DNA of 64,000 bases from Spironucleus salmonicida (Eukaryota): NCBI RefSeq assembly GCF_000497125.1, contig NC_090601.1, positions 186,001 through 250,000 of the forward strand. Direction: 5' to 3'. Made by a program: the position numbers and the translations under genes. Numbering within the stretch: position 1 is the first letter of the stretch; every line of letters begins with the position of its first letter. This document shows positions 6,601 through 37,991 of this stretch, piece after piece. The notes beneath the pieces were generated by a model. That model saw nothing but the letters and a program-made list of their open reading frames with translations, searched no databases and had not been told where the DNA came from.

Positions 6601-6947
6601 TCTCATTAGATTAAGATGAAGAAAATCCAACTACACGACTTAATTCTGACGTCGGATATTTTATTACAATGAATCCTGGTTATGCTGGTAGAACTGAGCT
6701 TCCAGATAATTTAAAAGCATTATTCAGAGGTGTAGCTATGGTTGTTCCTGACTTTTGTTAAATTACAGAGATTATGTTAGTATCAAATGGTTTTATTTCT
6801 GCACGAAATCTAGCAAAAAAATTCACTACATTATATAGTTTAAATAGAGAACTACTATCGAAATAAGATCATTATGATTGGGGCTTAAGGGCTATTATAG
6901 CTATTTGTAGGACAGCTGGCATGTTGAGAAGAGAGATGATAAAGTGA
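684..6947 (+). CDS. Axonemal outer-arm dynein heavy chain (beta-like), N-terminal half only: tail + linker + AAA1, ~2087 aa
   Basis: Single frame from [29 protein letters not shown] through [39 protein letters not shown], Walker [44 protein letters not shown] and HYDWGLRAI, then AAG TGA at 6942-6947. Confidence 0.92.
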
Positions 6948-10011: not shown

Positions 10012-10318
10012 TTTGGCGGAGTGAAAACAATATTCTGTCAAATACCCTATATATTAATAATTTATTTGTAGAACATTGTTGTGAAAAAATATAAATGTAA
10101 TAGTATTTTATATTGCTATGTTTACAGTTTTAAGTCAATGCTAGATATTCTTATAGACACTTGTGTATACTTATTTTATTGCAATAAATAACTCGATATA
10201 CGATAAGATAATTGTTAGTTTAAATATAAGTATTTTTATAGAATATTATATTCAAAGTAGAATATTAGGATTATCATTATTATTATATCTAATCTATGTA
10301 AAAATTGTGAAGAATACA

Positions 10319-13300
10319 ATGGATAATTTAAAGATATCAGAGTTAACACGCACACCTACCTTATAGACTCATTATAAAAAATCCTTACTAAATAGATCTT
10401 CTAGATCAAAGTCAACATTAGATGCTCCTGTAGTATCAGCTGTTACTGCTTAAGCTATTTAACTACTTCATTAGTCGTTCAAAGATTTAGCAAAAAGTTA
10501 AAACCATATGCAATAACATATAGATTTCAAGATATTACGCTTCGATTTTGAGCTATTACCTTTGAAGTTAAAGTATTTGTAAAATAAAATTCAAAAACTT
10601 GAAAATATTGTGTCAAAGCTTTAAATTTAATAATAAAACAAATAATTTACTGTAAAAACTTAGCAATAGATATAATAATCATTAAATGAGTTAAGTGAAT
10701 TCAATGATAGTTTAAGAAAGTAAGTAAATGATCAATAATGTAAATTAAGTAGTAATAATAATATGAAAAATAATATTTAATAAGTACTTTTGAAACATAA
10801 TTTTGATAAATTCCATCAAAAATCAGAAATTTAAAGAGATTAATATGTTGATGAGATCGGTATCCAGTTAGATCGAATTTTAGATCAAAAGTATTTAATC
10901 AAATAACTTAATGATATATTTGATTAAAAATTTATAAATATGGATTAGGTTATTGAATATTCAAGTAAATTAAAAATTTCTGAGATTTCAAGACGGGAAA
11001 GTAACAAATCAAGACGAGAAAGTGGTAGTTTTGCTGAACAAGATAAAGGGTATTACCAATAATTATGTTAAATGACTAAACAAAACGAATCATTAATCAA
11101 TGAAAATGTGCTTAAAAATGATCTATTGAAAGATCTTAAGATTTAACTTTAAGGATAGATTAAACGGCATGAAAACTATTAGAAAAAGATAGAGATAGAA
11201 AAAGAGAAAGAAAATCAATATTTTGTTATTAAAATACAAGATTTAGAGAAAGAGATCTAATAATTAAGAGATAGAGATACTGAATTCTAATAATTATAAG
11301 CTGAGAAAGACAGATTAATATAACAATATGTTGTTGCATTTTCGGAAAATATAAATATTGTTGAAGAAGTAAAGAAGTAAAATGATGATATAGCATCAGC
11401 TATAAATTCTATTCATAATAATAGTGGTAATAAAAATGATAATTTTAGTGTACTAAATGAAATAAAATAGTAATTGGGACAGTTAGACGATTTCAAAATT
11501 ACATATAGTTAATAATAACAAAACTATAATCTATTAAATTAAGTGTCATAAACCTAATAGTATTTAATAGATAGTTTTAAATCATTATAGTAGTAAGAAA
11601 AATATAATGACAAAATACTTCTTTTATAAGAAAAAATAATAAATTATGAACTAACATTACATGATCATCAAAATAATAATTAATAATAGACGTAGGAAAT
11701 AGAGCATCTACGCATGATAAATAAGGAAGCGGGGTCCGAGCTGAAGAACTTCTAGTAGGTGCTGATGTTAAAAGAGTAGTCGCATTGCGCACTTCAGCAG
11801 GAAGTCGATGGACTTTAAGTCTAGCTGGAGGAGACCAAGTTATTCTATGAAGGGAAGCAGGCAACCGACAAGTCTATGCAAATGTCACAGTACGCCTTGC
11901 CGGTATCATTGCAAACTAGTGCCCTCGTCGATTCGCAGGTGAGTGTCTTACGCAACGAAACGGTGGAGCTCTAGCAAAAGGCTTAGGAGCTAGAAGCTCA
12001 TGTTGATAAGTAAACAGAGTAACTTGTAAAAGTTACTTAGGACAAGGATACCAGAGAGAGGTAGATATAAAATCTTGCCTCTGAAAATGCTTAGCTTACT
12101 GGGCAGTTAGAGGATTTGAGATACTCAGTGCTGAATGAGTCTAAAACTATTGAAGGCAATTAGAAAACGATTGGAAATTTAAGGGAGGAACTAGTTCATA
12201 CATAGGCAATGGTTGACAAACTAATTGCCGAAAAGCAATAAAATATCTCAGCATCTACAGAGTAGCGCATGAACGAAACTAAACTTATGGAGCATATCAA
12301 CTCACTAGTTACTGAATAGTAGCAAGGTGTCACGACGATTTAAACATTACAATAGGAAATAGAGCATCTACGCATGATAAATAAGGAAGCGGGGTCCGAG
12401 CTGAAGAACTTCTAGTAGGTGCTGATGTTAAAAGAGTAGTCGCATTGCGCACTTCAGCAGGAAGTCGATGGACTTTAAGTCTAGCTGGAGGAGACCAAGT
12501 TATTCTATGAAGGGAAGCAGGCAACCGACAAGTCTATGCAAATGTCACAGTACGCCTTGCCGGTATCATTGCAAACTAGTGCCCTCGTCGATTCGCAGGT
12601 GAGTGTCTTACGCAACGAAACGGTGGAGCTCTAGCAAAAGGCTTAGGAGCTAGAAGCTCATGTTGATAAGTAAACAGAGTAACTTGTAAAAGTTACTTAG
12701 GACAAGGATACCAGAGAGAGGTAGATATAAAATCTTGCCTCTGAAAATGCTTAGCTTACTGGGCAGTTAGAGGATTTGAGATACTCAGTGCTGAATGAGT
12801 CTAAAACTATTGAAGGCAATTAGAAAACGATTGGAAATTTAAGGGAGGAACTAGTTCATACATAGGCAATGGTTGACAAACTAATTGCCGAAAAGCAATA
12901 AAATATCTCAGCATCTACAGAGTAGCGCATGAACGAAACTAAACTTATGGAGCATATCAACTCACTAGTTACTGAATAGTAGCAAGGTGTCACGACGATT
13001 TAAACATTACAATAGGAAATAGAGCATCTACGCATGATAAATAAGGAAGCGGGGTCCGAGCTGAAGAACTTCTAGTAGGTGCTGATGTTAAAAGAGTAGT
13101 CGCATTGCGCACTTCAGCAGGAAGTCGATGGACTTTAAGTCTAGCTGGAGGAGACCAAGTTATTCTATGAAGGGAAGCAGGCAACCGACAAGTCTATGCA
13201 AATGTCACAGTACGCCTTGCCGGTATCATTGCAAACTAGTGCCCTCGTCGATTCGCAGGTGAGTGTCTTACGCAACGAAACGGTGGAGCTCTAGCAAAAG

Positions 13301-16300
13301 GCTTAGGAGCTAGAAGCTCATGTTGATAAGTAAACAGAGTAACTTGTAAAAGTTACTTAGGACAAGGATACCAGAGAGAGGTAGATATAAAATCTTGCCT
13401 CTGAAAATGCTTAGCTTACTGGGCAGTTAGAGGATTTGAGATACTCAGTGCTGAATGAGTCTAAAACTATTGAAGGCAATTAGAAAACGATTGGAAATTT
13501 AAGGGAGGAACTAGTTCATACATAGGCAATGGTTGACAAACTAATTGCCGAAAAGCAATAAAATATCTCAGCATCTACAGAGTAGCGCATGAACGAAACT
13601 AAACTTATGGAGCATATCAACTCACTAGTTACTGAATAGTAGCAAGGTGTCACGACGATTTAAACATTACAATAGGAAATAGAGCATCTACGCATGATAA
13701 ATAAGGAAGCGGGGTTCGAGCTGAAGAACTTCTAGTAGGTGCTGATGTTAAAAGAGTAGTCGCATTGCGCACTTCAGCAGGAAGTCGATGGACTTTAAGT
13801 CTAGCTGGAGGAGACCAAGTTATTCTATGAAGGGAAGCAGGCAACCGACAAGTCTATGCAAATGTCACAGTACGCCTTGCCGGTATCATTGCAAACTAGT
13901 GCCCTCGTCGATTCGCAGGTGAGTGTCTTACGCAACGAAACGGTGGAGCTCTAGCAAAAGGCTTAGGAGCTAGAAGCTCATGTTGATAAGTAAACAGAGT
14001 AACTTGTAAAAGTTACTTAGGACAAGGATACCAGAGAGAGGTAGATATAAAATCTTGCCTCTGAAAATGCTTAGCTTACTGGGCAGTTAGAGGATTTGAG
14101 ATACTCAGTGCTGAATGAGTCTAAAACTATTGAAGGCAATTAGAAAACGATTGGAAATTTAAGGGAGGAACTAGTTCATACATAGGCAATGGTTGACAAA
14201 CTAATTGCCGAAAAGCAATAAAATATCTCAGCATCTACAGAGTAGCGCATGAACGAAACTAAACTTATGGAGCATATCAACTCACTAGTTACTGAATAGT
14301 AGCAAGGTGTCACGACGATTTAAACATTACAATAGGAAATAGAGCATCTACGCATGATAAATAAGGAAGCGGGGTTCGAGCTGAAGAACTTCTAGTAGGT
14401 GCTGATGTTAAAAGAGTAGTCGCATTGCGCACTTCAGCAGGAAGTCGATGGACTTTAAGTCTAGCTGGAGGAGACCAAGTTATTCTATGAAGGGAAGCAG
14501 GCAACCGACAAGTCTATGCAAATGTCACAGTACGCCTTGCCGGTATCATTGCAAACTAGTGCCCTCGTCGATTCGCAGGTGAGTGTCTTACGCAACGAAA
14601 CGGTGGAGCTCTAGCAAAAGGCTTAGGAGCTAGAAGCTCATGTTGATAAGTAAACAGAGTAACTTGTAAAAGTTACTTAGGACAAGGATACCAGAGAGAG
14701 GTAGATATAAAATCTTGCCTCTGAAAATGCTTAGCTTACTGGGCAGTTAGAGGATTTGAGATACTCAGTGCTGAATGAGTCTAAAACTATTGAAGGCAAT
14801 TAGAAAACGATTGGAAATTTAAGGGAGGAACTAGTTCATACATAGGCAATGGTTGACAAACTAATTGCCGAAAAGCAATAAAATATCTCAGCATCTACAG
14901 AGTAGCGCATGAACGAAACTAAACTTATGGAGCATATCAACTCACTAGTTACTGAATAGTAGCAAGGTGTCACGACGATTTAAACATTACAATAGGAAAT
15001 AGAGCATCTACGCATGATAAATAAGGAAGCGGGGTTCGAGCTGAAGAACTTCTAGTAGGTGCTGATGTTAAAAGAGTAGTCGCATTGCGCACTTCAGCAG
15101 GAAGTCGATGGACTTTAAGTCTAGCTGGAGGAGACCAAGTTATTCTATGAAGGGAAGCAGGCAACCGACAAGTCTATGCAAATGTCACAGTACGCCTTGC
15201 CGGTATCATTGCAAACTAGTGCCCTCGTCGATTCGCAGGTGAGTGTCTTACGCAACGAAACGGTGGAGCTCTAGCAAAAGGCTTAGGAGCTAGAAGCTCA
15301 TGTTGATAAGTAAACAGAGTAACTTGTAAAAGTTACTTAGGACAAGGATACCAGAGAGAGGTAGATATAAAATCTTGCCTCTGAAAATGCTTAGCTTACT
15401 GGGCAGTTAGAGGATTTGAGATACTCAGTGCTGAATGAGTCTAAAACTATTGAAGGCAATTAGAAAACGATTGGAAATTTAAGGGAGGAACTAGTTCATA
15501 CATAGGCAATGGTTGACAAACTAATTGCCGAAAAGCAATAAAATATCTCAGCATCTACAGAGTAGCGCATGAACGAAACTAAACTTATGGAGCATATCAA
15601 CTCACTAGTTACTGAATAGTAGCAAGGTGTCACGACGATTTAAACATTACAATAGGAAATAGAGCATCTACGCATGATAAATAAGGAAGCGGGGTTCGAG
15701 CTGAAGAACTTCTAGTAGGTGCTGATGTTAAAAGAGTAGTCGCATTGCGCACTTCAGCAGGAAGTCGATGGACTTTAAGTCTAGCTGGAGGAGACCAAGT
15801 TATTCTATGAAGGGAAGCAGGCAACCGACAAGTCTATGCAAATGTCACAGTACGCCTTGCCGGTATCATTGCAAACTAGTGCCCTCGTCGATTCGCAGGT
15901 GAGTGTCTTACGCAACGAAACGGTGGAGCTCTAGCAAAAGGCTTAGGAGCTAGAAGATACAGTAGTATAGTTAAATAACTTAATATCAGATATTCAAAGC
16001 TAAAAATAATAGCTTAAATAACAATTGTTGTTATTTGAATCTGAAAATTTGAATCTAACAAAATAATTACTTAGATATCAAAATATAAAAGACACACAAC
16101 TACCGGATCATAGTAATATTACAGCTAGTTCATAGACTATTTTGACTTATGATTTGATTGATGTGATTGATTATCAAAATGATACACTTAAATTTGATCT
16201 CAGATAACAGTAACATTAAAACTAAGAAGTTACTAAAATACAGTTTAATCTGCAAACTTAGGTATAAGATCTTCGAGAATAAAATATTGAACTTAATATG

Positions 16301-20634: not shown

Positions 20635-21034
20635 TTATTTTAAATATTATAATATTATATAATATAGAGTTAATATAATTAACATATATGTAAGTAAAGT
20701 TTTATGTTAATGACATAAGCCTAAAATATAATTTAGATTTAGATTATCTTATGCTGCAATAAATATAAGTTATTTGCTTAATATGAAATATCTAAATGAA
20801 AAAAGTAACATAGCTTATTTTGTAGTTTAGCCTAATAAAACAATTTAAAATTAAAACAAACACATTAGAACCATGTTATACTTGATGAACTTCTACTTAT
20901 ATAAATATTTCCTCATTTATACTATATGTTTTAATTATTTTATACTATACCATAAAATAGTACCTAAAACAGTTGTATCTCCGTCATTATTGCCATTTTT
21001 TCCATTAATCACTTTTACAAATATACAAATAACC

Positions 21035-22321
21035 TCACTCACTCTCATGTTACATCACACTAGATTCACTAATTTCGCCATTTTCGTCCTCCTATTTCTC
21101 TTCTTATATCAAAATTTTAGATTTTATCGCTTCTGCAATTTCGCAACCTAAGGCAAAGAGACTCTCTCTGCTTTTGTCACCCAGCAAGTACTTAAATTCA
21201 ACCTTACCAATAACGTTGCAATTAGCGCTTTCCAGATACGTTTCCATCATATTAAGGCTCTTTTACGCCCATCCGAACGCACCAAAAACGCACCCTGGTT
21301 TGTTGCCAATCAGTTGCAGCCCCCTTAGGTAGCGCAAAGCAGCCTCAGTTTTAACGCTCAGCCTGCTGTTAATCGTCGGACTCCCAAAAGCGATACCGCC
21401 TGCATCGTACGCGTGATATGCAACTTTTGTCAAATCGACAACGCGCAAATCGCAGATTTGTGACCGAACTCCGCAAGAGTACGCGCCTTCTGAAAGCGTT
21501 TTTGCTGCATTTTCAGTGGCGCCGTAAACTGAGTCGAAAACAATCAAAAGTTTCTGTTTCAAGTTCAGTCGATGTGCGTAAAGCGAGTATTCACGAAGGG
21601 GATAACCTAAAAAATCACCCCGCCAGGAGCAACCATGCGCAGTCAAAATGTACTCAATTTTAAGAGTTGCTGCGGCCTTTAGCGCAGTTCGGATCGGGGC
21701 ACGAAATGGACCCAGAATGTTTGCTGTATACTCTTTGAGTAAGTACATTAAGTGCTCTATGTCCTGGACCTGGTCTGCCCAACGGTCTGTTGAGGCGATA
21801 TGCTGCCCAAATCCATCGTTTGAGAAAAGAATATTGTTGGTCGCATCTAGAGTGAACATTGAATCTGGCCAATGCAGGTTTGGAACTAGCAAGAATCCAA
21901 GTGTTCTAGAGCCTGTACTAATGGTTTTTGAATTATCCACTAACTACCAGCTACAGGATTTTAACGACGGGTAGAGTATACAGAGGTGTTCTTTACAAAC
22001 CTTATTTGTTATTATAGTGGCATTGGGAAATTTTGGCATCACTAGAGGAAGTGCACTGGTATGATCTCCTTCAGCATGATTCACAATAATCTATTTAATC
22101 TAATCGAGGGGAATTACCGCACTAACTCTTTCTAAAAACTCTTCCCAAAAAGGTTCTTTCACACAATCAATAAGCGTAGGAATAGTATCCTTAATTAAAT
22201 AAGCATTATATGACGACCCTTCATCAGTATGATATCCATGAAATATTCTAATTGTCCAATCAATTGCACCTACCCAAAATACATTTGGCAACATCTCTGT
22301 GCTAGTAACAAAGTTAGTCAT
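21035..22321 (-). CDS. Flavodiiron protein (A-type flavoprotein, FprA-like), paralog 2, 428 aa
   Basis: WVGAIDWTIRIFHGY, GSSYNAYL, NHAEGDH, LHWPDSMFT, SNDGFGQH, TAHG, FDSVYGATE, GSPTIN and FGAFGW; ends AGT GAG TGA. Confidence 0.95.
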
Positions 22322-22423
22322 TATATGATTATTGTTATTATGCTATATAATATATACAATAACTTTAATTTTATATTATCAATTTTATATTCTTTATACT
22401 ATTCTATATCTTTGTTAAAAATA

Positions 22424-23434
22424 ATGTTTGGTTTTGATTTTGATGTTTTAACAGTGGAAGATTAATTAAATATTACAGGAGGATCGTGTATTGGAGCTAT
22501 TATATCAATATTATATTGCATAATAATATTTAAATATACTACAATAGTTCATTAGTAAGAAGAAATTGTAATTGAACGATGTGGCTAGTATAAAAAAGTT
22601 CTTTAGCCTGGTTGCCATTGTCTTCTTCCATTTTTTGATGCTAAGGTAGAATTTATTGCTGTTGACTATCACTTCAACATCAGCAACCATCACGTGCAGC
22701 AGTCGGTGACCGAGCGCAAGGGCCAAGATAAGTTCATTATTGACAAGCGCCTCCAGGTTCTGGATATGCCATTGCAGCCAGTTATTACCCGTGATAACGT
22801 CCAGCTTGAGGTGCACCCTATGGCGCTATACAAAGTAACGGACTCCATGCTCGCGGTTTACGAGGTACAAAATCTGTACTCCTCGATCTAAATTTTAATA
22901 TCAACTACACTTTCAGACATAATTGGAAGAATTACATTGGATGACACCCTCTGCTCTAGACAGGAGGTAAGACGCTAGGTATTCAACCAGATCCATTCTA
23001 CCATCTAAAACTGGGGAGCCCTATTGATCGAAGTTGACATCCTCGAAATAGATCCCCCTGAAAACATTGTTACAGCGATGGAAGCTCAGTTACTGGCAGA
23101 GCGTGAGAGAAGAGCTAAATTAGTAGAAGCTGACGCTGACCGCTAAATAAAGAAAATCATGGCTGACTCGCTTAGCCAGGAAAAGATACAGCTAGTAACA
23201 GGTGAAAGTCAGAGCATGGTCATGATAGCAGAAGCGGAAGCAGAAGGGCAAAAGGCCATAGGTATGGCGCAGGCTGAAGTAATTGGCATGCTGAGCGGAA
23301 AGGTGAAAGGATTTGATGTTGGTGATTTCCAGCTAAAAAACTACTGGCTCGATGCTATCGAAGCAGTGGCGATCAATAGTAGGAACGTGCAGTTGGTGAA
23401 GGGCGTAAGTATTCTATAGAAGCTTTCTGAGTGA
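22424..23434 (+). CDS. SPFH/band-7 (stomatin/QmcA-like) membrane protein, 336 aa, intact copy
   Basis: N-terminal hydrophobic segment, then IVHQQEEIVIERCGQYKKVLQPG, DMPLQPVITRDNV, IGRITLDDTLCSR, WGALLIEVDILEIDPP, AMEAQLLAERERRA and AEAEA repeats; ends GAG TGA. Confidence 0.9.
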
Positions 23435-25670
23435 CAATTTCTGTTAGTACTTCCGTTGCTTCGATTATAATGCCTTTATAATATTATATTTATCGAAATG
23501 AATTTCCTGTTTCCACTTCTTCATAATGATTACTACTGTCCGTGTTTCTCAATCCTGATGACATATACAAAATTGTATGATTTTCAAATATTTATATTCT
23601 ATGTATCACTTCTTCAGCACTGGCTTTGGGGCTCCGATCCCAGTTATTCTGAGACCATTCACTCCCAATGGCATGGCACGTTGCTGCAGTACTGGCTTTG
23701 CACTGCTGATACGTTTTATTTATGGGTTTCCCATATCAATCGTGTTAATCTCAGACTGTCTTTCGCACTCCTCAGCCTCTCGGGCGGCGATTATTTTATC
23801 TCGGTCTCTCTGCTCTATTTTGGTATCGTCTATACATACCAGATCTATATTCGATTCCAATATATCGAATACGTAGCTCTTTGATAGCTTAGAATATTTG
23901 AGGCAGAACGGGTTGTTTGCACAGCGGATCACCTACAGGTTTCCAGCCTTGGATACAAAGTTCTCAATCTAAGAAATGTTAGATATTTTGCATGATTCAC
24001 AATTTAAGCTACGAAGGGTGGAACGAACTGCTAGCGCAATCTCCAGATCTCTGGCGGCGTACGATATATCCAGCGCCACAAGGCATGGGAGTTTGGATAG
24101 GGTATCTTTCGATACATTCAGGAATTGGTTCTGGGAGAGGTCGAGTAATACTATCGAAGGAATAAATCCGAATTATGCAGGTACTAGAGACTTCAGCATA
24201 GACCTTTGGAGGTGAAGGTGCTTGATCGGTGCATGGAAGTCGTTGTTTCGGATGACCTTAACTGGATTTCCATTCAATATTAATGTTTCTAGAGCTGTAT
24301 GGTTTAATTATATGTTAAACGGATCAATGATGTCGTTTTCTGAGAGATCCACATACTTCACTTTCGGAAAATCCCTAAGATCGCTGAGAGAAGATAGCTA
24401 GTTGCCAGTGAGAATTAAAGTATGGACCTCCGATACTATGTGTTATATACCCGGGTCTACGCCTATGCTTGTCAATCCCAACCCAGATAAATCCAGAACA
24501 TAGTTCTAGATACTCCGTATTCTCAGGATTTGGGGGTTAATCCGACTAGTTAACTCTTAAATTTTTAGCTATCGCATCGGTTCTGTAATGATCATGTCGT
24601 TGATGAGGCCTAAGTCTGGAAGAAAATATAAGAAATCCTCAACCTTTTCGTTGTCTATTAGTAAGTGTGTTATCTTATTGAAATTCAGTAGTGACTCAGA
24701 ATTAAAACTAGCCTGCATAAGATTGACTATTTATATATGCGGTGGTAGATTAGTAATCGCACCAGAGTGAAGTTCCTTCAGATTATGCATGGTATTAGGA
24801 TTCAGTGCACATTCACAGTTCTGTATATCCAACGCAATCATTTTCTAGAGATTGATATTTTTAAGCTATCCTTGCGTTACATCTGAAAAAGGGATGCGGA
24901 GCTAAGTTATGCCGGTAAACTTGGCCAGGAACTACACCTAAAACTTATATACTTCTGGCGCGTGTATTCCAAATAGGTTTTCCTAGTTAAGAATTTATAA
25001 TGGTGGAGTAAGGACCCCCTGGTATTCCAAATTGACAGCATCGGCATGTTGGTCCAGAAACGGCTACAGAAAAGCATTAGATTGATGCAATTAGTCATGG
25101 CAACAATTGTATTACATCACACCAATAGATGTAATTCCTCTGTTTTCTATGAGACTTGTAATGGTACTAACATGGATACCATTTATCATCTTAATGTTCT
25201 TGAAATATCTTAGAATTTAGGTAAACACGTTATACTCCTGGTTTGGAAACAGGTTGCCATTATAATTTAAAACTTCCAAGCTATTTTTAGTCTGTTGAGA
25301 AATCCCTGAAAATATAGCCATAAACGAAAACTGGTTGAAAGATAAATCCAATACTCGCAGAGTAGGGCAATTTACTTTTATCTTCACAAGTTTATTCTTA
25401 GATAAATTAAGCTCCAGTAAAGCACTAGATTCAAACGAAAATGTTTGCATATCATTATATGATAGGTCGATGCAGTGTATTTCATGCAACTAGCTAAGTA
25501 TTTCCCCAATATTGTCTGGATAAGTAGGACACATATTGTGAAGATCTAAAGCGTGCTATACTGAGTATACAAGTCTATCGGCCACAGATTCTTCGAAATT
25601 TGTCGTGGAAAGAACTGGAGATCGTACATAGGTCTCCATACCGCCTTGCTCGCCAAATTGATGCAATATA
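22666..25670. repeat. Left arm of a ~3.0-kb inverted duplication (partner 34681-37685)
   Basis: Position p pairs with 60351-p throughout (e.g. 22694/37657, 25489/34862). Mismatches seen only at 25015/35336 and 25661/34690. Confidence 0.97.
23606..25670 (-). pseudogene. 5'-truncated copy of the LRR gene 33413-36745; frame intact, could start at internal ATG 25639 or upstream ATG 25771
   Basis: Reverse complement of 34681-36745, lacking the first ~423 codons of the full gene. Confidence 0.75.
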
Positions 25671-25745
25671 AATTTATAGATCTTTATTTGGTCTGTTAAA
25701 CAAATATAATAATAGTTTATAACCAATTTATATAAAAATAAAATC

Positions 25746-27986
25746 TCAATCTTTGGATTAAGCATCTTCATTATCGAGCTTGTTACTATCTAGTAGTGCT
25801 ATTTCGTCTTCTGGAATACTAACTTTATTATTCTTAAATAATCTTGGACCCAGGAGGAATATTGCTAATAAAACAATTACTGCGATGACAACACAAGACA
25901 ATAGAATTATACCAATTATCATGCCTATACCAGTATCAATTTCCTCTTACAGTTATCTAGACAATCTAGGATCAACTCTTTCCTAACAAATAAAACTAAC
26001 ACCAGATTTAACTCTATACCATCCTAATTCGCAACCATATGGAACACAGTTATTATCCACAAATCTAGAAGTAATATGGGTATCAACATCAGTATCACAA
26101 ATATAACCAAATGTATTTATTTCTGCACTGATATCAATAGCTTTTTACACAAATATTGCTAATCCATCAGGACCTTACCAATTTCCATATATAGGATGTA
26201 TATCATACAATACTTTATCCACTTGAATAGAACGATATTCAAGTGGAATACCAGATTCTTCTAACGAATCAAAGCTAAATATACTTTAATGAGCAAAACG
26301 CTAAAATCCATCATGTGGAATATATAAAGATTTTAAAAAATTAAAATCATCTTCTGAAATACTAGGTGACTTGAGGTTTTTAATACTATCTTCAAAGGTA
26401 TTAGAATCCATAACAACTCCACCCGCAAATGAAGATACATCAAATCGATCTGAAGAACGTTTATATCCACCAACACCAACAGACTTAACATTTTTAAGTT
26501 AAACTAAATGTTTAGCAAAACATGAACATGTAGAGCCACAAAGCGCATCAGTAATAAGAATAATATTCTCAGGCGAATAGTTAATACCTTTAAATGCATA
26601 AATTTTATCTAAAATATCTTTGAAAGAAGGTTCTGCATCATCATCAGAAGCATAATTAATCGTGAAGTTATTTTTGGTTGGTGTTTCATACCATGTTAAA
26701 TTTTTAACATATTCTGGTTAAAATTAAAAATATGTATAAACTTCTCCAGTAATCCAATCAACACGATTGCTATCTTCAAATTCTGTTTCAGCTTACATAA
26801 GCAATTACTAAATTCTTGATTTTCTAATAGAATATCTTCCATAAATGGGATATTACTCAGGGAACATCATAAATGCAGTAAGATGTCCTAAACTAACCCA
26901 ACCACCACCATTACCTACTAATGATAGTATTAATTTTCCTTATTAAGTCTATTTAATAGTCTGCATTACATTAAATAAATCTTTTAGTGCTTAAACATTG
27001 TCAGGAGGACTAAAAGATTCAATAGATAATACTAAATCAGATTGGTAAGAATATAAAGTGAAAAACTCTGGAGACTACTAAATGATTGAAAATTAATCAT
27101 TTTATGACTAAGGGTGAGGTTATTTATAATCTAATTTCTTTAAAATATGCTCATACGTTTTATCGGAAATAATATGATTTGATGATAATTTTTTAACCAG
27201 TGACATTTCATATAAATTTTGAGCATCATTACTATCATTGATGACTTTATCTGTTGTTATAACATAGTAAATACTATAACTTGTACCATCTAATAGTTAA
27301 ACTGTCATCTTTTCATCAACAGTTTCAGGTAAGTTATAAACTTTTAAGTTTTGATAATACATATCATTCCCTATGAAAGAATTAAAGCAGCCATGATCGC
27401 TTTTACTAGAATAACAATATTTTCTTGCTTATTACATTAGATATTCTTCAACTTCTATTCCATTAATTTTGAATATTCTTTTACCCAACATTTACTCAAA
27501 ATTTTAGGTAAAGTCTAATTTTTTGTAACCATCATGAATACTCTAATCTTTAAATGGGAGTTTCTCAGTATACCAATAGCCATCATCTTTTTAGGTAATA
27601 ACCAAAGGAAGGCGTTTCTTGAAATTAGAAAAGAAAGAACTTTTTACATATAAGGTATGAGGATCTTTTAATTATAAAAATAAGGCACTTAATGCGGCAA
27701 AATAATCATAAGCAGAAGCATTTTAAGCCGCTTGATATTTGCTGCGAATAATAGCTAGTTTAGCATCAATATCTACTGCTAAATGTTAATATTCATATGG
27801 AGGATTTTTAGCAATATCTTAAAAACCGTGTAATTAGATCAATTCTTCCACTGTTTTTTAATTTTGTTCAAATATATCTTTGGTAAGTAAAGGATATTTT
27901 ATACATTCAGCAGCAGATTTAATAGGATATACCGCATTTATATCAGGCATACGACAAAGATCAATAGCGTATACTAAAATGATCAT
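25746..27986 (-). CDS. Membrane-anchored peptidase S41 (tail-specific/CPAF-like), 746 aa
   Basis: Short hydrophobic N-terminus MIILVYAID; LKDPHTLY; ILSLVGNGGGWV (DLRGNGGG-like); ITDALCGSTCSCF (catalytic-Ser region); SVGVGG; C-terminal TM IGMIIGIILLSCVVIAVIVLLAIFLL with a short tail. Confidence 0.8.
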
Positions 27987-28093
27987 TTTAAAAATAAATC
28001 ACTTAATCTGATTAATATTTATGGAATATATTAATATTACTTGTTTTAGTGATTTATTTTATGAATATGTTCTATAATACATTACAATGATTT

Positions 28094-28840
28094 TCATTCT
28101 ACGTTCATTAGTAAACTGCCATTTTAACATAAAAATGTTATATTATTTAAATCAGTTAGTGCTTAAAAGCAATCCATCATATTGGAAAGATTAGGCTTGA
28201 AATTATTTTTTAACCTAAGGGAGAAATGACCTATAATAATATTTTAAACATTAAGCCTGTCAACTAATTATCTTACAATTGTGTCATTTGAATGTTTAAA
28301 TTATTTTGCTTTTTCCAAATTAGTAAAAGTGCATTCACATATTAAATAATCTATAGGTACTGATTCAAGTATTTCCAAATTTGAATAATCTCCATCTGAT
28401 AGTATATAAATTAACTTATTTTTAGACGTTTCAATCCTAATACCATAACATTCAACCACATGAAATAGTTCTATAGTACTTATTTTGTAGTCTATATTCT
28501 ATAATATTGTATCAATCTGAATAATATTAATATTTACCTCTAAGTTCATTAATGAAAAAAAATTTGTAATAAATTATTAACTACCAGAAGGGGCATAGAT
28601 GATAGGAATTTGAAAATTATTATTAATATGATTAAGTATAATTTATGGTAACCCTGATATATGATCCATATGAATATGAGAGATGAAAATTGTATCTATT
28701 GATATATTGTTTAAACTGATAGCGGCACCCTCAGATGCATCAAATAGTAAGTTACTATTATTAAATTCTAAAAAATAAGATTATGTGTTTTAATCAGCTG
28801 ATACAAATCCTCCAGCTATACCTAAACATGTAAACCTCAT
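28094..28840 (-). CDS. Short RNase Z-like metallo-beta-lactamase hydrolase, 248 aa
   Basis: MRFTCLGIAGG, LFDASEG, FISHIHMDHISGL (HxHxDH), IYAPSG, FHVVECYG, LSD, CECTF, HSN and GHFSLR. Confidence 0.85.
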
Positions 28841-28956
28841 TTTAAGCAAAATTTATTATAGTATAAATATACCTCTTTATTATTTCATTGTTTGAAAAAA
28901 TAAAATTAACTGTATGCTAAAATATCATTTTAAAATTATAAAGTAGATTTCTAAAC

Positions 28957-30516
28957 TCAGAATATAAATCTTAGTACACTTAATATTGATACTAATTCAT
29001 TGTCTCTATAAGAATCTAGTATATATTTATTAAAAATATTATTATGATCTAGATTTAAAGTTAAAAATCTATTTTATAAAAGAAATTAGATTTGATTCCT
29101 TTTTTCATCTTAGTTATTATTATAAAAGCAAAAATCATCTTAATATGCTTCCGAAACGGTAATTGGAAATGTATGTTCAATGCAATCAATACCAATACAT
29201 TAATAAAATTTAATGTATTTTATAGATGGAAATATTAAACCAATTGATGTTACTTTATTAATAAATATAACTTTATTAAAAATACATCCATTCAAACAAT
29301 CTTTCTCCATAAAATTATAATTCTTATATAATTCTCCATTCAACTATTAATATTCATTTACTTAAATAAGGCCTCCTTAAACTGTGCATTAACATAATAT
29401 TAGTTTATCTATATCACCTTAAAGCTTAATACTTTAAGATTAATAAATTTTTAATTAATAACAGTTAATTACTTATATTTATACATCGGTTGATTCACTT
29501 ATTTCTATATATTAACAATCATTAAATGTTGCACTGATTAATTAATTAGAATTTAACTTTACTTCTACTACATTACTAAATGATACTTTACGTAATAAAT
29601 TGTTCTATAAATTTAATTACTCTAAGTACGTGAAAGTTTAATTTGGTAAAAACTCTAAAAGACGACTATTTTCTAAATTTAGTGTCTATAATTTTTCTAA
29701 AATTGGAAAATTATTGATATCTAAGTTTTACTCTGATTCGATAATTTCGTCATTTCTAGTCCATGGTATTGAAACCATATAACGATACGGATGCTCATAT
29801 TCTAAAACTGAATTATTAGTTCCATTCCCACTGAGCGAAAAATATCTTAAATTCTACATATTTTTCATGAAACTAAAAGAAAAAATATAATTTTAACTTA
29901 GATCTAAATACTCTAAATCTAACTACTATAAGAATTAACATTATGTCAGATTACAATTAATGAGTTTTACTATTTTCAGATTTTTATTAATAATGTCAAA
30001 CTGATGTGATGCAATTGGACAATTTATTATAATAACTTTCTGTAGTAAGGGATAAGTTGGGAATGTATCAAAGTTAGAGTCAATAGCATAAAAGCTAATC
30101 AAATTTGGAAATTATAAATTTTGCAACTCTGAAGTACTACAATCGGATATACTTAAATATAGTATAGAATTTGTATATATTGGCTATAATAAAGTCACAT
30201 TTTTCAAAGTAAGCTAGCTGTTTAATATTTTTTCTAAAAATAAAGAATTCTAAAGGATAATATTATTTAATACAATCGGACGATTGAATTTTATCAAATA
30301 ATCTTCTATATATTCATAGCCCTCATTTTAAAATAGAAAGTTATAGATTAAATCATAATCTACAAAATTAAGTTATTCATTAAATAAAAAAACTGGTATG
30401 TTTTTCTTAAATAATTTGACAATATTAGCTATTAAAACATTATTAGCTAAATATCCATTGGCATCCTTTAAATTTTACACCTAAATAATTTAGGTTATTT
30501 CAATATAATTTTACAT
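28957..30516 (-). CDS. Leucine-rich repeat protein, ~519 aa
   Basis: Open frame from ATG 30516 with LxxLxLxxN repeats such as LEYLDLSQNYIFSFSFMKNMQNLRYFSLSGN. Confidence 0.7.
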
Positions 30517-30558
30517 TTCAATAATATTATATATAATATAAATAATTGATAAATACTC

Positions 30559-33240
30559 TCATAAAATTCTCTATAGTTTTTTACCCTTTTTACTTTTACC
30601 TTTCTTTCCCTTGCCTTGTTTAGGAACTGTAAAGTCAAACATTTATACATTATATTCTGTTATCTTATTAATTGAAGTAGCTCCATTAGCTACTTTCTCC
30701 ATTCGCTTTATACTTGGGGCTAGTTAATCAAAATCAAATTATATAGACATTTTTATAGGAACTTATCCCATTAGAGCTTTATTAATTGAATCTTTATATT
30801 TAATTTTTAATGTTTCTATTAACTTATTAGCTAGTATCTATTAGTTTTTAATGAAATCAATTTTAGAATCTTCCTATTCAATAGCCGTTTTAAGATTGTC
30901 CAGTTCTAGTTAATGTAACTAAATTTGTTCCAAATTTTTATTATTTTATTCTACAAGTGCTTTTTCTGTTTCATCAAATTTAGTTTAAGTTTATAAAATA
31001 GACTATTTGTTATCCTCTTATTATTAAGTGTATTTCTATTCTAACGATACACATTTTAAATCTGCTTCCTTTATTAAATCATTGACTTATTCTGTCTACT
31101 AAATTTATTAATTACTTTTAAGCTATAAACTCTGATTTTATCTATAATTTTAATCATTACAATCATCTTTTTATGTCAAAATAGATGCAATATGATTTTA
31201 TACAATTGAGATCGACTTCATTAGAAAGTCTAACTCCTCTCTACATATTGGCAAACGTTCAGACTAACTTTTCATGTCTATAATACGTTACTTAAGTCTT
31301 TTTGGTGCATTCATAGTAATTTTAGATTTATTTTCAGATAATTTTTACTATAATAATTATATTGAAAAATGTGCAACCTAATTGCCTCTTAAATTAGTTT
31401 AAAGCATTCCATAGCTTTTAATGAGAAATGTACATCCTTTTTAACCTCCAACTTCACCCACAAAATTTTCTTCAAAGTTTAGTGAAATCATATTAGAGCA
31501 AACTGAAATAGAAAATGCTAATGCCACAAAACCAGCATCAGAAATTGAACACTTTGAAAAATCTAAATGTGTAATAATTGAGTTAACTTCATCCATTTTA
31601 TCAAGTTTAGGTATGAAATTTGGTTATGTTTAAAATTTTCGTAGACATATCTAATTAAAAATTAACGTTTCAGCAATTAATATTGCACCATTGTTTTGCA
31701 ATTTATTTCCACTCAAGTTTAAATAATGAATTTAACAACACGATTTTAATAACTATGAGACATATGATATTCCATTAACGGATATATTATTGTATCCTAA
31801 AGAAAGATGAGTAATACCAGAATAAATAAGACCTGATGCTGAGGACTATGATATAAAATTATCATCATGTGACTCTGTTAATGTTGAACCTAAAAATTCA
31901 GCCATTACCGTATTCGTAGGAAATGTCTATGTTTACTGAGGATCCGAAATTATTGCTGTTTCAAGATCGACTTAGGGTGTTTCATCTCCAAATGAAGTCT
32001 CAGCATCATCTTCTTAGACATTTTCTTACAAAAATTATTAAAAATTAAGCGTATCTTCTAGTTTATTAGTTTATTAAGAATGGCTAAAATTTCTTTTTGG
32101 TATTTTTTTTAGAATTGTGGATGATAATACACGCCCTTTATGATTGATGACAAATATTTTCTTATCACCCTATTCTTCTTATTATTTATTAACAATTTTT
32201 TCAAAAAAATCTGTCATTAAATCACAAAGTGATTCTGTAGCATTGACAGAATTATTAAGATCAAATTATGACTTTAACTAATCCCTATTATTTATTATAG
32301 GATGAGAGAGAGTTGCAGCTATTATAGCAACTCCATCATCATCTAGTGCACAATTATTTAAGCTTAATTTTTTTAAACTTTAATTTTATGATAATCCATA
32401 AGATAATGCTTTAGCACCTTCAACACCTAAAGGATTATCATCTAATGATAATTCGACCAAACCACATTATAAGTTTGATAAAATGTTACTTAATATTGGA
32501 ATAGAAAGAAACGTGATTCCATTACCATTTAAGGTCAATTTTTAAAGACCAATATTTTATGTTAACCCTCGAAAAATTGAAGTTGCACCTGTATTTTATA
32601 GGAGATTATACGAGATATCTAATGCAGTTAGTGTTTAATTTTGAGATAGCATAATTCCAAGTTGAGACGGACCTTCGTTAGATACACCTATACCGGCTAA
32701 GTTGTGAGACAATCCTAAATATTTTAAAGTTTAATTATGAGCTAAATTTTTGGCTATAAAAGAAATAGACTCAGATGTGAGCTAATTTATTAAAGCTGTA
32801 TTAATATTCTTTCTAACTTTTTAGAAAATATACCCAGAAGGATACCCTAATTCAACCGCTTCTAATCCTGACCCTTCTTTTAATATTTCTCCAAGTGCCA
32901 TAGCACCTTCATTAGTAATACCACAACATCCAACATTAATACGTTTCATTGTATAATGTCGCTCGGCATACTTTAATAATGCCATAAACCCTACATCTTT
33001 AATAGCATTTTCAAATAAATCCAATGTAGCTAGTTCTACTCCTTCCAATCTTTTTGATAACTATAATGTTGAGGTTGGTCCTAATCTTGCTCTTCGCAAC
33101 TATAGCTAATCTGTTGGAGATTTACGAGATATTTCTAATAAATATTCAACACCTTCTCTTGTAGGTTGTTCATCTGCATCTTTAGCGATAGCTAAATAAA
33201 TATCTTTAATGAAATCTGTTTATAGCCAGGGTTGAGTCAT
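30559..33240 (-). CDS. RNI-like leucine-rich repeat protein with C-terminal coiled coil, ~893 aa
   Basis: MTQPWLQTDF... with repeats LATLDLFENAIKDVG, INVGCCGITNEGAMALGEIL and LSLDDNPLGVEGAKALS; lysine-rich tail GKSKKGKKLQRIL*. Confidence 0.85.
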
Positions 33241-33412
33241 TTAAAGAAAAAATAATGCATCGTTTTTGATATATTATTATAGAATTGAAAATTTAATTAT
33301 ATTTTAACAAAAATAACCGCACTATAAATAATATTATTTTAAATACATATTATTAATATAGTTTATTATTATAAATAGTACTATTTATTATATAACAATA
33401 ATAAATTAAAAA

Positions 33413-36400
33413 ATGACTATAAATATAAATAATTTCTTCTCTGAGGTTTCATCTGACATTCTGCGGTTAAAAGCCTAAGATACAAAGTCAGATTATTTTT
33501 TATAGACAGAGGTACCTTTAGAGGTAAATACTGAAATTTTTAGAGCAGTTAGATGCAGACTTAATGTTTAACCAACCCCTAGCAAATATTCATATTTTGA
33601 TGGAAATTAAATAAGTGAAGGTTAATGCGGGAATGCAGAGCTATTAAGTCTATCCATGAACCCTTTAATTTTAATGAAACCTTCATAAACCATAAAAGCG
33701 CTATGCCTATCATTTACTAAAATCACAAGGTTAGATTTATCAGATTATGAGAATTTATAAACTTTTTCTGTAAAGGGCTGCTCATATTTGTAATCTATCA
33801 ATTGGTCTAGTTTTACTGGATTTGCTGATATACAATAAACTAGAATTTCTTTATTACCATCAACATAAAATATACGTTATGATAAAATTGACGACCGTTT
33901 ACAATATTCTATATTAAATCATAATAAATCTACATTAGAGTAAAATTTTGAGCTTATTCAAAAATATAATGTTTCATTATTAGTAAATATTTAATCTAAA
34001 CTAAAACTATTTTTATTATAAAACAAATTACTTAGTGATATTTATGACGTATAAAATGATATTTCTGATATTAATCTTATATAAAATTAAAGAAAATCTA
34101 ATCAATAATATATTTCTGCCACTGAGTTACAAGTAAACTAAGATTTATTTTTAAATAAAACCAATCTTCTTACCAACTTAAATGTATGCTTATAGTAAAT
34201 ATAAAAGTTTTATTAAGACATTTAATTTGAGTATTTTGTTAAAAATTTACCAATATTATCATATTTTAAAACTTTAAATATCAATGTATAGTAGTTAGAT
34301 AGATATACATACTCTATTGAAAATAATAATTTAACAGATATATCGATTAAATTATGTTTCGAGGATGTAGAAATTGCTAACGGAAAAATGATGTATGATC
34401 CTACAGAATTCCAAAATTACATAATAAATAATTCCAAAACCATATATGTTAAAATATAGAATCAAAACATATTAAAATTTATTGCGGAAGGATATTAGTA
34501 TAATTTCTCTACGTCTGTAACATAGTATGTTTTATCAGACAACTAAATGTAATTTTAAAGTTATGTTTAATGTAAATAAATAGCTATATAAAAATCTTAA
34601 GAGTATATATTAGTTCCAGAAATAATAAAAGTAGACGATTAACTTTTAAATTATGATAGTATATTACTTAGGTAATAGTCTATATTGCAGCAATTTGGCG
34701 AGCAAGGCGGTATGGAGACCTATGTACGATCTCCAGTTCTTTCCACGACAAATTTCGAAGAATCTGTGGCCGATAGACTTGTATACTCAGTATAGCACGC
34801 TTTAGATCTTCACAATATGTGTCCTACTTATCCAGACAATATTGGGGAAATACTTAGCTAGTTGCATGAAATACACTGCATCGACCTATCATATAATGAT
34901 ATGCAAACATTTTCGTTTGAATCTAGTGCTTTACTGGAGCTTAATTTATCTAAGAATAAACTTGTGAAGATAAAAGTAAATTGCCCTACTCTGCGAGTAT
35001 TGGATTTATCTTTCAACCAGTTTTCGTTTATGGCTATATTTTCAGGGATTTCTCAACAGACTAAAAATAGCTTGGAAGTTTTAAATTATAATGGCAACCT
35101 GTTTCCAAACCAGGAGTATAACGTGTTTACCTAAATTCTAAGATATTTCAAGAACATTAAGATGATAAATGGTATCCATGTTAGTACCATTACAAGTCTC
35201 ATAGAAAACAGAGGAATTACATCTATTGGTGTGATGTAATACAATTGTTGCCATGACTAATTGCATCAATCTAATGCTTTTCTGTAGCCGTTTCTGGACC
35301 AACATGCCGATGCTGTCAATTTGGAATACCAGGGGTTCCTTACTCCACCATTATAAATTCTTAACTAGGAAAACCTATTTGGAATACACGCGCCAGAAGT
35401 ATATAAGTTTTAGGTGTAGTTCCTGGCCAAGTTTACCGGCATAACTTAGCTCCGCATCCCTTTTTCAGATGTAACGCAAGGATAGCTTAAAAATATCAAT
35501 CTCTAGAAAATGATTGCGTTGGATATACAGAACTGTGAATGTGCACTGAATCCTAATACCATGCATAATCTGAAGGAACTTCACTCTGGTGCGATTACTA
35601 ATCTACCACCGCATATATAAATAGTCAATCTTATGCAGGCTAGTTTTAATTCTGAGTCACTACTGAATTTCAATAAGATAACACACTTACTAATAGACAA
35701 CGAAAAGGTTGAGGATTTCTTATATTTTCTTCCAGACTTAGGCCTCATCAACGACATGATCATTACAGAACCGATGCGATAGCTAAAAATTTAAGAGTTA
35801 ACTAGTCGGATTAACCCCCAAATCCTGAGAATACGGAGTATCTAGAACTATGTTCTGGATTTATCTGGGTTGGGATTGACAAGCATAGGCGTAGACCCGG
35901 GTATATAACACATAGTATCGGAGGTCCATACTTTAATTCTCACTGGCAACTAGCTATCTTCTCTCAGCGATCTTAGGGATTTTCCGAAAGTGAAGTATGT
36001 GGATCTCTCAGAAAACGACATCATTGATCCGTTTAACATATAATTAAACCATACAGCTCTAGAAACATTAATATTGAATGGAAATCCAGTTAAGGTCATC
36101 CGAAACAACGACTTCCATGCACCGATCAAGCACCTTCACCTCCAAAGGTCTATGCTGAAGTCTCTAGTACCTGCATAATTCGGATTTATTCCTTCGATAG
36201 TATTACTCGACCTCTCCCAGAACCAATTCCTGAATGTATCGAAAGATACCCTATCCAAACTCCCATGCCTTGTGGCGCTGGATATATCGTACGCCGCCAG
36301 AGATCTGGAGATTGCGCTAGCAGTTCGTTCCACCCTTCGTAGCTTAAATTGTGAATCATGCAAAATATCTAACATTTCTTAGATTGAGAACTTTGTATCC

Positions 36401-36745
36401 AAGGCTGGAAACCTGTAGGTGATCCGCTGTGCAAACAACCCGTTCTGCCTCAAATATTCTAAGCTATCAAAGAGCTACGTATTCGATATATTGGAATCGA
36501 ATATAGATCTGGTATGTATAGACGATACCAAAATAGAGCAGAGAGACCGAGATAAAATAATCGCCGCCCGAGAGGCTGAGGAGTGCGAAAGACAGTCTGA
36601 GATTAACACGATTGATATGGGAAACCCATAAATAAAACGTATCAGCAGTGCAAAGCCAGTACTGCAGCAACGTGCCATGCCATTGGGAGTGAATGGTCTC
36701 AGAATAACTGGGATCGGAGCCCCAAAGCCAGTGCTGAAGAAGTGA
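33413..36745 (+). CDS. Leucine-rich repeat protein, ~1110 aa, full-length copy
   Basis: ATG 33413, with the frame continuous into the duplicated arm (ILQQFGEQGGMETY...IHCIDLSYNDM...LELNLSKNKL...LRVLDLSFNQF...TLILTGNQLSSL); ends AAG TGA. Confidence 0.85.
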
Positions 36746-37685
36746 TACATAGAATATAAATATTTGAAAATCATACAATTTTGTATATGTCATCAGGATT
36801 GAGAAACACGGACAGTAGTAATCATTATGAAGAAGTGGAAACAGGAAATTCATTTCGATAAATATAATATTATAAAGGCATTATAATCGAAGCAACGGAA
36901 GTACTAACAGAAATTGTCACTCAGAAAGCTTCTATAGAATACTTACGCCCTTCACCAACTGCACGTTCCTACTATTGATCGCCACTGCTTCGATAGCATC
37001 GAGCCAGTAGTTTTTTAGCTGGAAATCACCAACATCAAATCCTTTCACCTTTCCGCTCAGCATGCCAATTACTTCAGCCTGCGCCATACCTATGGCCTTT
37101 TGCCCTTCTGCTTCCGCTTCTGCTATCATGACCATGCTCTGACTTTCACCTGTTACTAGCTGTATCTTTTCCTGGCTAAGCGAGTCAGCCATGATTTTCT
37201 TTATTTAGCGGTCAGCGTCAGCTTCTACTAATTTAGCTCTTCTCTCACGCTCTGCCAGTAACTGAGCTTCCATCGCTGTAACAATGTTTTCAGGGGGATC
37301 TATTTCGAGGATGTCAACTTCGATCAATAGGGCTCCCCAGTTTTAGATGGTAGAATGGATCTGGTTGAATACCTAGCGTCTTACCTCCTGTCTAGAGCAG
37401 AGGGTGTCATCCAATGTAATTCTTCCAATTATGTCTGAAAGTGTAGTTGATATTAAAATTTAGATCGAGGAGTACAGATTTTGTACCTCGTAAACCGCGA
37501 GCATGGAGTCCGTTACTTTGTATAGCGCCATAGGGTGCACCTCAAGCTGGACGTTATCACGGGTAATAACTGGCTGCAATGGCATATCCAGAACCTGGAG
37601 GCGCTTGTCAATAATGAACTTATCTTGGCCCTTGCGCTCGGTCACCGACTGCTGCACGTGATGGTTGCTGATGTTGAAGTGATAG
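34681..37685. repeat. Right arm of the ~3.0-kb inverted duplication (partner 22666-25670)
   Basis: Reverse complement of the left arm; the ORF track shows a mirror-image set of identical peptides. Confidence 0.97.
36917..37685 (-). pseudogene. 5'-truncated copy of the SPFH gene lacking the membrane anchor; first in-frame ATG at 37585
   Basis: Matches 22666-23434. Upstream of 37685 the frame is unrelated and reaches TGA at 37901-37903 with no ATG. Confidence 0.75.
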
Positions 37686-37991
37686 ACTGTTAATGAGATT
37701 AAATATATTTTAACTAAAATATTCTAAGTAAGTAAAGGAATATTAATACCGCAAAGATTTCTTTAAGTTTTAGATACAACACAATAATATATGATTTTAG
37801 TTTAGTACAGAGTTAAAATATAGCCAAGTAGACAATAAAAATGAATTAACACTTATAAATATTTATAAGGATTTAATAATATGTCAAACTATACTTTAAC
37901 TCAGAGAAAAAATATCTTAAATCAGTGTTGATATTCGATTAAACTAAATTTTATATATTATTATATAAATATAATATATTATGTAAGTAAA

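Follow-up and report, generated by a model that had tools for sequence, protein, structure and literature searches.

Near-identical inverted duplicates that differ in base composition from the DNA around them are best studied in the palindromes of the human Y and primate X chromosomes, for which arm identities above 99–99.9%, arm-to-arm gene conversion biased towards guanine and cytosine (GC-biased) and arms that are GC-richer than their flanks have been described (PMC3723533, PMC8981503), with inversions of the palindrome spacer being rare (3 vs. 146 conversion events; PMC3723533). Among diplomonads, duplicated regions (at least 2 kb long and at least 95% identical) make up 19.2% of the genome of Spironucleus salmonicida and have a mean GC content of 44.7% vs. 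30.7% elsewhere, an excess for which the consulted part of the report offers no cause (PMC9509377), and seven pairs of identical variant-specific surface protein (VSP) genes, arranged head-to-head or tail-to-tail, are found in Giardia muris (PMC7641422). Within the same parts of these two reports gene conversion is invoked only for cysteine-rich surface-protein families (PMC9509377, PMC7641422), and no paper on GC-biased conversion in diplomonads was found, as judged from titles and the beginnings of abstracts. The locus presented here lies in a 64,000-nt stretch of the S. salmonicida genome (positions 186,001 to 250,000 of contig NC_090601.1, hereafter “the window”, with position 1 being its first letter) and is, as we are moderately confident, a genuine inverted segmental duplication in a diplomonad chromosome, the 3-kb arms of which enclose a 9-kb spacer and have been kept alike by recurrent gene conversion that either raised the GC content within the arms only or shielded it from AT drift.

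The resemblance to the mammalian sex-chromosome palindromes, in which frequent conversion goes along with possible but rare inversion of the spacer, is close as far as inverted arms, a unique spacer, an identity of more than 99.9% and arms GC-richer than the flanks are concerned, whereas the arms at hand are 3 kb rather than 9 kb to over 1 Mb long, carry gene fragments instead of whole amplified genes, and belong to a diplomonad without demonstrated meiosis, with conversion being read from composition only (PMC3723533, PMC8981503). The locus likewise agrees with the duplicated regions of S. salmonicida in consisting of near-identical duplicates of at least 2 kb with a GC content far above the rest of the genome (PMC9509377), and G. 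muris, from a diplomonad lineage too, has inverted pairs of identical genes with other genes in between (PMC7641422), yet those reports deal with genome-wide averages or surface-antigen families, while here the repeat edges lie inside two unrelated genes and pin the GC step (PMC9509377, PMC7641422). This amounts to a “natural experiment” with two unrelated genes, each half in and half out of the repeat, so that expression level, gene family and protein function are all held constant while the copy number changes. A further parallel is offered by the inverted repeats of plastids, which are homogenised by copy correction, exist as flip-flop isomers, have truncated genes at their boundaries and reside in organelle genomes present in many copies per cell. 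Large homogenised inverted repeats and a truncated copy wherever a repeat edge cuts a gene are common to both, but the locus described here is nuclear, and the two spacer orientations that coexist in plastids through homologous recombination are hypothetical here.

The elements of the repeat, together with the GC-rich segments that a two-state hidden Markov model (HMM) places over them, are as follows:

22666..25670, no strand assigned: left arm, holding the 3' part of an SPFH gene (+) and the 3' part of a leucine-rich repeat (LRR) gene (-); GC-rich HMM segment 22606-25654.
34681..37685, no strand assigned: right arm, the reverse complement of the left arm bar 2 substitutions; GC-rich HMM segment 34687-37689, all-base change points 34687 and 37690.
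25671..34680, no strand assigned: spacer, unique and AT-rich, 9010 nt, GC 0.20-0.33 in 250-nt steps, which an arm-to-arm crossover would invert.
25015 C vs. partner 35336 A, no strand assigned: arm mismatch 1, giving V (truncated LRR copy) or F (full LRR gene).
25661 A vs. partner 34690 C, no strand assigned: arm mismatch 2, 10 nt from the inner arm edge, giving H (truncated LRR copy) or Q (full LRR gene).

Both arms measure 3005 nt, and in an ungapped comparison, with positions pairing by the rule p + p' = 60351, 3003 of the 3005 positions were identical, there being two substitutions, both of which alter an amino acid of the LRR frame (V/F and, beside the arm edge, H/Q), and no insertions or deletions; a preliminary description of this stretch had the arm coordinates, the pairing rule and the number of mismatches right. 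No other inverted repeat of at least 60 nt is present in the whole window (seed 16), and the arms of more than 99% identity on both sides of a unique 9010-nt spacer are what is expected of a palindrome-type structure. Past the arm ends the match drops at once to chance (10 of 39 positions on the outer side and 12 of 39 on the inner), and local alignments of the 700-nt stretches that flank the arms score like those of shuffled sequences (z = 0.04 outer, -0.31 inner), with no trace of an older, larger repeat.

As near-identical repeats are classic sites of misassembly and the window offers one assembled sequence, it might be suspected that only one 3-kb copy is real and the second stems from read chimaeras or from a mistaken route through the assembly graph. 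We deem this improbable: the repeat lies well inside the assembled sequence, flanked by more than 22 kb on either side and interrupted by a unique spacer of 9 kb, which sets it apart from hairpin-read artefacts; between the copies there are 2 substitutions but no indels; merged haplotypes differing by a simple inversion cannot yield the junction 25670/25671, as neither of them would contain it; the duplicated stretch matches a compositional island of the kind typical of repeats in the window; and the source contig of 1.67 Mb suggests a long-read assembly able to span 3 kb.

Genes were read with genetic code 6, in which TAA and TAG stand for glutamine and under which the window is densely filled with long open reading frames (ORFs); the standard code was rejected, as it left only 4 ORFs of at least 100 aa overlapping 18000-42000, compared to 84 overlapping 16000-44000 with code 6. 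The arms are thereby seen to take part in four genes or gene copies:

22229..23434, + strand: complete SPFH/Band 7 gene, first ATG at 22229, Band_7 E 2e-28 (residues 106-304 vs. profile 2-175), arm edge at codon 146 of the long ORF.
36917..37685, - strand: truncated SPFH copy, first in-frame ATG at 37585 giving 222 aa, without the membrane anchor and without the first ~34-48 Band_7 profile positions.
33413..36745, + strand: complete LRR gene of 1110 aa, crossed by the arm edge at residue 423, LRR_8 and LRR_4 matches.
23606..25771, - strand: truncated LRR copy, the residues of which from ~38 on equal residues 423-1110 of the full gene.

The proposal of the preliminary description that a full SPFH gene is paired with a “headless” LRR copy at the left arm, and a full LRR gene with a “headless” SPFH copy at the right one, is thus borne out by the coverage of the Band_7 profile and by colinearity with an LRR homologue. 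In the right SPFH copy the Band_7 match begins only at profile position 34-49, and nothing SPFH-like is encoded by the open frame upstream of the arm; for the complete gene, the true start is likely to be the ATG at 22421 rather than that at 22229, because 22229-22321 overlaps the start of the neighbouring flavodiiron protein gene FDP2. As to the LRR gene, a 1092-aa homologue, P0252, came up in a full HMMER scan covering 1.84 billion representative proteins and is colinear with LRR residues 58-1072, and hence across the arm edge at residue 423 (pairwise E 1e-37), while a word-index homologue search with the LRR protein returned only the window's own 642-aa form and one weak match. Open frames of at least 423 codons are rare in the window (22 of 2287 TGA-to-TGA frames), and, judging by this rarity and by the colinearity with P0252 across the edge, the AT-rich 5' part of the LRR gene is real coding sequence and the left LRR copy truly truncated.

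The 34 codons of this truncated copy that lie upstream of the arm are unrelated to the full gene and overlap the end of the next gene, and both the truncated SPFH copy and the truncated LRR copy are cut exactly by the arm edges. Within the arm, the stop codons of the convergent SPFH and LRR genes are only 171 nt apart. The 642-aa LRR form and the 222-aa SPFH form of the window are already present in the protein database, each as a two-member cluster, and the truncated copies (23606-25771 on the - strand and 36917-37585 on the - strand) seem to be annotated as ordinary proteins, something that the locus flags for annotation purposes.

What the preliminary description lacked is the most informative feature of the locus, a sharply bounded GC-rich island made up by the arms. 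At fourfold degenerate sites the GC content of the SPFH gene is 0.44 in the arm vs. 0.143 out of it (Fisher p = 9e-4) and that of the LRR gene 0.405 vs. 0.145 (Fisher p = 3e-7), with 15 other single-copy genes or gene parts falling at 0.11-0.21, so the synonymous GC content jumps about threefold exactly at the repeat edge. Maximum-likelihood change points in the GC content of third codon positions fall after codon 145 in SPFH (edge at 145.67) and after codon 419 in LRR (edge at 422.67), the support intervals containing the edges in both cases, and all-base change points at 25655, 34687 and 37690 compare with edges at 25671, 34681 and 37686; the outer-left all-base change point, at 21809, comes from a test confounded by the adjacent GC-rich FDP2. 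A GC content of the arms above that of flanks and spacer, with a step at the arm edges (change points 1-4 codons off), is again as in palindromes. An island with such sharp bounds speaks for a real duplication, and for one that is probably older than a divergence of 0.07% would suggest.

The choice of glutamine codons shifts along with it, the ratio of TAA/TAG (TAR) to CAA/CAG (CAR) going from 5:0 outside to 5:17 inside the arm in SPFH (p = 0.003) and from 38:7 to 24:22 in LRR (p = 0.001). At the fourfold sites of the arms G and C are up equally, to ~0.2 each vs. 0.08-0.09, and codon selection was rejected as the cause of the GC rise, given that the step occurs within single transcripts and that both bases rise to the same extent. 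The 171-nt intergenic piece in the arm has a GC content of 0.275, which, with ten other intergenic pieces at 0.15-0.28, is not distinctive on its own. Even the amino acid content seems to be affected: the fraction of GARP residues (glycine, alanine, arginine and proline) of the LRR protein goes from 0.074 to 0.149 in its arm part, while homologue P0252 is flat (0.094 and 0.096), a contrast that, with a single homologue to compare, provides modest evidence.

Whether the GC rise goes with repetition can be looked at elsewhere in the window, since the HMM finds eight GC-rich segments in total, four of them longer than 1 kb, and three of these four are repeats (the two arms and a tandem array). 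Two features outside the locus matter in this respect:

11686..15965, + strand: 660-nt tandem array of ~6.5 units with one internal mismatch, inside a 2340-aa coiled-coil ORF at 10118-17140, serving as an internal control.
21035..22321, - strand: FDP2 flavodiiron gene, the HMM GC-rich segment 21033-22305 being its coding sequence, fourfold GC 0.38.

The array was defined by a comparison at lag 660, Tandem Repeats Finder having come up empty since its longest period of 500 is shorter than the 660-nt unit. Its GC island (11689-15965) coincides with the array edges (11686-15965), and the fourfold GC is 0.46 in the array vs. 0.17 in the flanks of the very same gene (p = 8e-14).

Judging from composition, the arms would have behaved like palindrome arms ever since they arose, with recurrent arm-to-arm conversion holding them at 99.93% identity and keeping the reading frames of the truncated copies open. 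The conversion, which is probably GC-biased, would favour G and C or at least protect the arms from the A/T drift of the genome, and the GC rise would be confined to the arms at the level of synonymous sites, glutamine-codon choice and even amino acid content. If conversion has indeed been at work, the duplication would be much older than the 0.07% divergence suggests.

How the duplication might have come about can be approached from its junctions. The two junctions that complete a gene (left flank to arm for SPFH; LRR 5' end to arm) must be ancestral and the two that yield headless copies, 25670/25671 and 37685/37686, must be new. The ancestral order would have been left flank, arm, reversed spacer and right flank, with the SPFH and LRR genes convergent and whole, and an inverted duplicate of a 3-kb piece with the 3' ends of both genes would then have come to lie beyond the 9-kb block, on its far side. 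Either one inversion event, its breaks being staggered at one end and flush at the other, or the insertion of an inverted copy followed by one arm-to-arm crossover, would do, and as the two routes yield exactly the same junctions, the sequence cannot separate them; in both cases the event would have created two new junctions and two headless copies while leaving both full genes intact.

Inversion by staggered breaks, which the preliminary description had named as an alternative, fits this anatomy well: both ends of the block carry unique breakpoint sequence as inverted duplicates, the new junctions cut genes, and the old ones are intact. Inversions flanked by inverted duplications of breakpoint sequence were documented by Ranz et al. 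2007 (PMC1885836), 12 of the 17 duplication-bearing inversions having a duplication from only one breakpoint region, and the longest duplication in that Drosophila staggered-break set being ~1.9 kb (PMC1885836). As in that set, non-repetitive genic sequence is found inverted and duplicated at the ends of the inverted segment, with truncated copies at the new junctions and intact originals; unlike in that set, the copies at hand are nearly identical, GC-enriched and not decaying, and the ancestral order is deduced from the junctions (PMC1885836).

Little else marks the breakpoints. Microhomology or short words shared between the four junctions are at chance level (10 nine-mers vs. 13.7 expected), and neither tRNA genes nor Rfam families that could serve as breakpoint landmarks are present in the window. 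On the plus strand, a near-direct CTGTT, one base out of register, occurs as GCTGTTGA before the left arm (22658-22665), where it sits in SPFH coding sequence, and as ACTGTTAA after the right arm (37686-37693); we judge the pair to be a chance match. It would, together with a GC content differing from the surroundings, be what recommends looking at the arms as terminal inverted repeats of a composite mobile element or as a laterally acquired GC-rich fragment, an idea that we find hardly credible, as the arms are halves of host genes, in frame with AT-rich flanks and with homology running across the edge, and use TAA/TAG as glutamine 29 times, which makes them native to a code-6 lineage. The CTGTT motifs being out of register and the chance-level junction words speak against it as well, and no transposase was found in the 26 different window proteins scanned.

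Several observations nevertheless weigh against our overall reading of the locus and have to be set against the evidence above. The GC-rich island over FDP2 covers a gene without a repeat in the window, which forms a one-member cluster in the protein database, so repetition is not the sole route to a high GC content in this window, and the island of the arms could in principle have been there before the duplication. The signal for the left inner change point is modest (log-likelihood gain 13.1), and the GC content is graded within the arm, from 0.32-0.35 near the inner edge to 0.44-0.46 near the outer one. The 3.0-kb duplication exceeds the ~1.9-kb maximum of the Drosophila staggered-break set (PMC1885836). 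The direction of the change, from AT to GC, would be given by one protein homologue only; meiotic or other recombination in this organism has to be assumed, and so do the copy number and orientation that the assembly gives for the arms.

FDP2 deserves some further attention in this regard. Its tandem paralogue FDP1 (19348-21048; 43% identity) is AT-rich, while FDP2 itself shows the same symmetric rise of G and C as the arms do, and it is an exception to “GC-rich means repeated” without an explanation. Precisely because FDP2 is GC-rich in the absence of a repeat, a reading in which the island came before the duplication stays alive: a young, one-off duplication, by staggered-break inversion or inverted insertion, of a pre-existing GC tract, with no lasting conversion, the tract owing its composition to whatever acted on FDP2, e.g., a hotspot of recombination or breakage by which the positions of the breaks were determined as well. 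The mere 2 differences in 3005 nt and the good fit of the anatomy to the staggered-break model are in line with this as well. It would, however, require all four arm edges to match the edges of a pre-existing island within ~5-15 nt, inside two different genes, and it has to cope with the tandem array showing the same edge-matched GC rise and with GC-rich duplicates being spread genome-wide in S. salmonicida (PMC9509377), all of which makes us regard a young duplication as rather unlikely and prefer recurrent conversion.

Homologous recombination between the arms could also flip the spacer, as conversion intermediates would occasionally resolve as crossovers and turn the 9-kb block around. The structural logic of the preliminary description, in which recombination of the arms turns the 9-kb spacer around and leaves all genes unbroken, is right, but “flip-flop switch” is an overstatement. 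Both isomers would have the same four junctions and the same intact SPFH and LRR genes, no promoter or coding end is exchanged, and all that flipping alters is how inner and outer junctions are combined on the arms, and with this the arm on which each convergent partner sits; hence, flipping should be nearly neutral. Site-specific switches such as Hin/Gin, Fim, the shufflons and FLP of the yeast 2-micron plasmid rely on short sites and a dedicated recombinase, and their inversion swaps a promoter or a coding end. A DNA block bounded by inverted repeats is shared with those systems, but short sites, a recombinase and a promoter or coding-end swap are all three absent here, the arms being 3 kb long rather than short recombination sites.

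Among the 26 different proteins scanned across the window, none belonged to a recombinase or transposase family, just as the preliminary description had noted none to be visible. The nominal match of the tandem-repeat coiled-coil protein to Phage_int_SAM_2 (E 7e-11) comprises no individually significant stretch, the best being 39 residues, and is regarded as repeat-inflated. With junctions and intact genes that do not differ between the isomers, and with no recombinase among the scanned proteins, the locus is not a regulated, site-specific switch.

A functional switch in a looser sense, with frequent inversion of the 9 kb altering expression, e.g., by pairing the full SPFH gene with either the full or the truncated LRR gene, could draw on arms that, at 3 kb and 99.93% identity, are good substrates for homologous recombination, and on convergent stops 171 nt apart, owing to which flipping changes the convergent partner that each transcript meets. 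Against it stand not only the lack of a recombinase or transposase family among the scanned proteins and the identity of the four junction sequences in both isomers, but also the lack of a tRNA or Rfam element in the window and the rarity of inversions in the best-studied analogue (3 vs. 146 conversion events; PMC3723533), and we hold such a switch to be highly improbable. What is left of the “switch” idea is a flip that would alter no junction and no gene.

If the arms are indeed maintained by conversion, they suggest that copies recombining with each other are what made the duplicated fraction of the genome GC-rich, a feature left without an explanation in the part of the genome paper drawn upon (PMC9509377), and they offer indirect evidence of active homologous recombination in diplomonads, a group in which, to our knowledge, sex has never been observed. 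A more general proposition, which we put forward tentatively and with less than even confidence, is that in hexamitine diplomonads any near-identical multi-copy stretch, be it inverted, tandem or dispersed, converts so often, and in such a GC-biased manner, that composition comes to mark the edges of duplicates with a precision of a few codons, even where they lie mid-gene, the locus at hand then being an ancient, repeatedly flipped nuclear palindrome. Were the proposition true, it would explain why about a fifth of the S. salmonicida genome is GC-rich duplicate, and intragenic GC steps would allow homologous recombination to be both timed and mapped from sequence alone in a lineage that is not known to be sexual.

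The spacer between the arms holds four further genes:

25746..27986, - strand: 746-aa gene with a C-terminal membrane segment and a sub-threshold S41/CPAF-like resemblance (Peptidase_S41 E 0.041, PDZ_CPAF_rel E 0.084).
28094..28888, - strand: metallo-beta-lactamase-fold gene (RNase Z-like fold family), Lactamase_B_2 E 7.8e-10.
28957..30516, - strand: 519-aa gene with a weak LRR-like signal (LRR_4 E 0.12).
30559..33693, - strand: RNI-type LRR gene with a coiled-coil tail, LRR_6 E 2.1e-23.

Of the identities given to them in the preliminary description, those of the metallo-beta-lactamase-fold (RNase Z-like) gene and of the RNI-type LRR gene (by its LRR_6 match) hold, while the S41 protease stays below threshold and the LRR nature of the 519-aa product is weakly indicated. 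For the 746-aa gene, the S41 identity is unconfirmed in that Peptidase_S41 scored 13.9 bits vs. a cut-off of 24, and no relative was found in the PDB at E below 0.99. If both ORFs are taken from the first ATG, the RNI-type LRR gene (- strand, to 33693) and the full LRR gene (+ strand, from 33413) have 281 nt in common at their 5' ends; probably one of these starts is located further in, and the true start of the RNI-type gene is probably downstream of 33693.

Elsewhere in the window, genes include those for a dynein heavy chain, the two flavodiiron proteins, a cysteine-rich membrane protein and Tsr1, and the best named relatives of a flavodiiron protein are proteins of Hexamita inflata and S. 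salmonicida, with 46-50% identity; taken together with the genetic code, this assigns the window to a hexamitine diplomonad. Roughly 2 kb past the outer end of the right arm, 39641-42577 (- strand) encodes a 978-aa cysteine-rich protein with many CxxC spacings, a C-terminal membrane segment and a short basic tail, which has no Pfam match and resembles diplomonad cysteine-rich membrane proteins. The dynein heavy chain ORF at 684-6947 (+ strand; DHC_N1, DHC_N2 and AAA_6) ends at profile position 229 of 327, while still in its first AAA module, and the gene that comes after it is on the opposite strand, which makes the ORF look like part of a split gene; split, trans-spliced dynein genes are known from Giardia.

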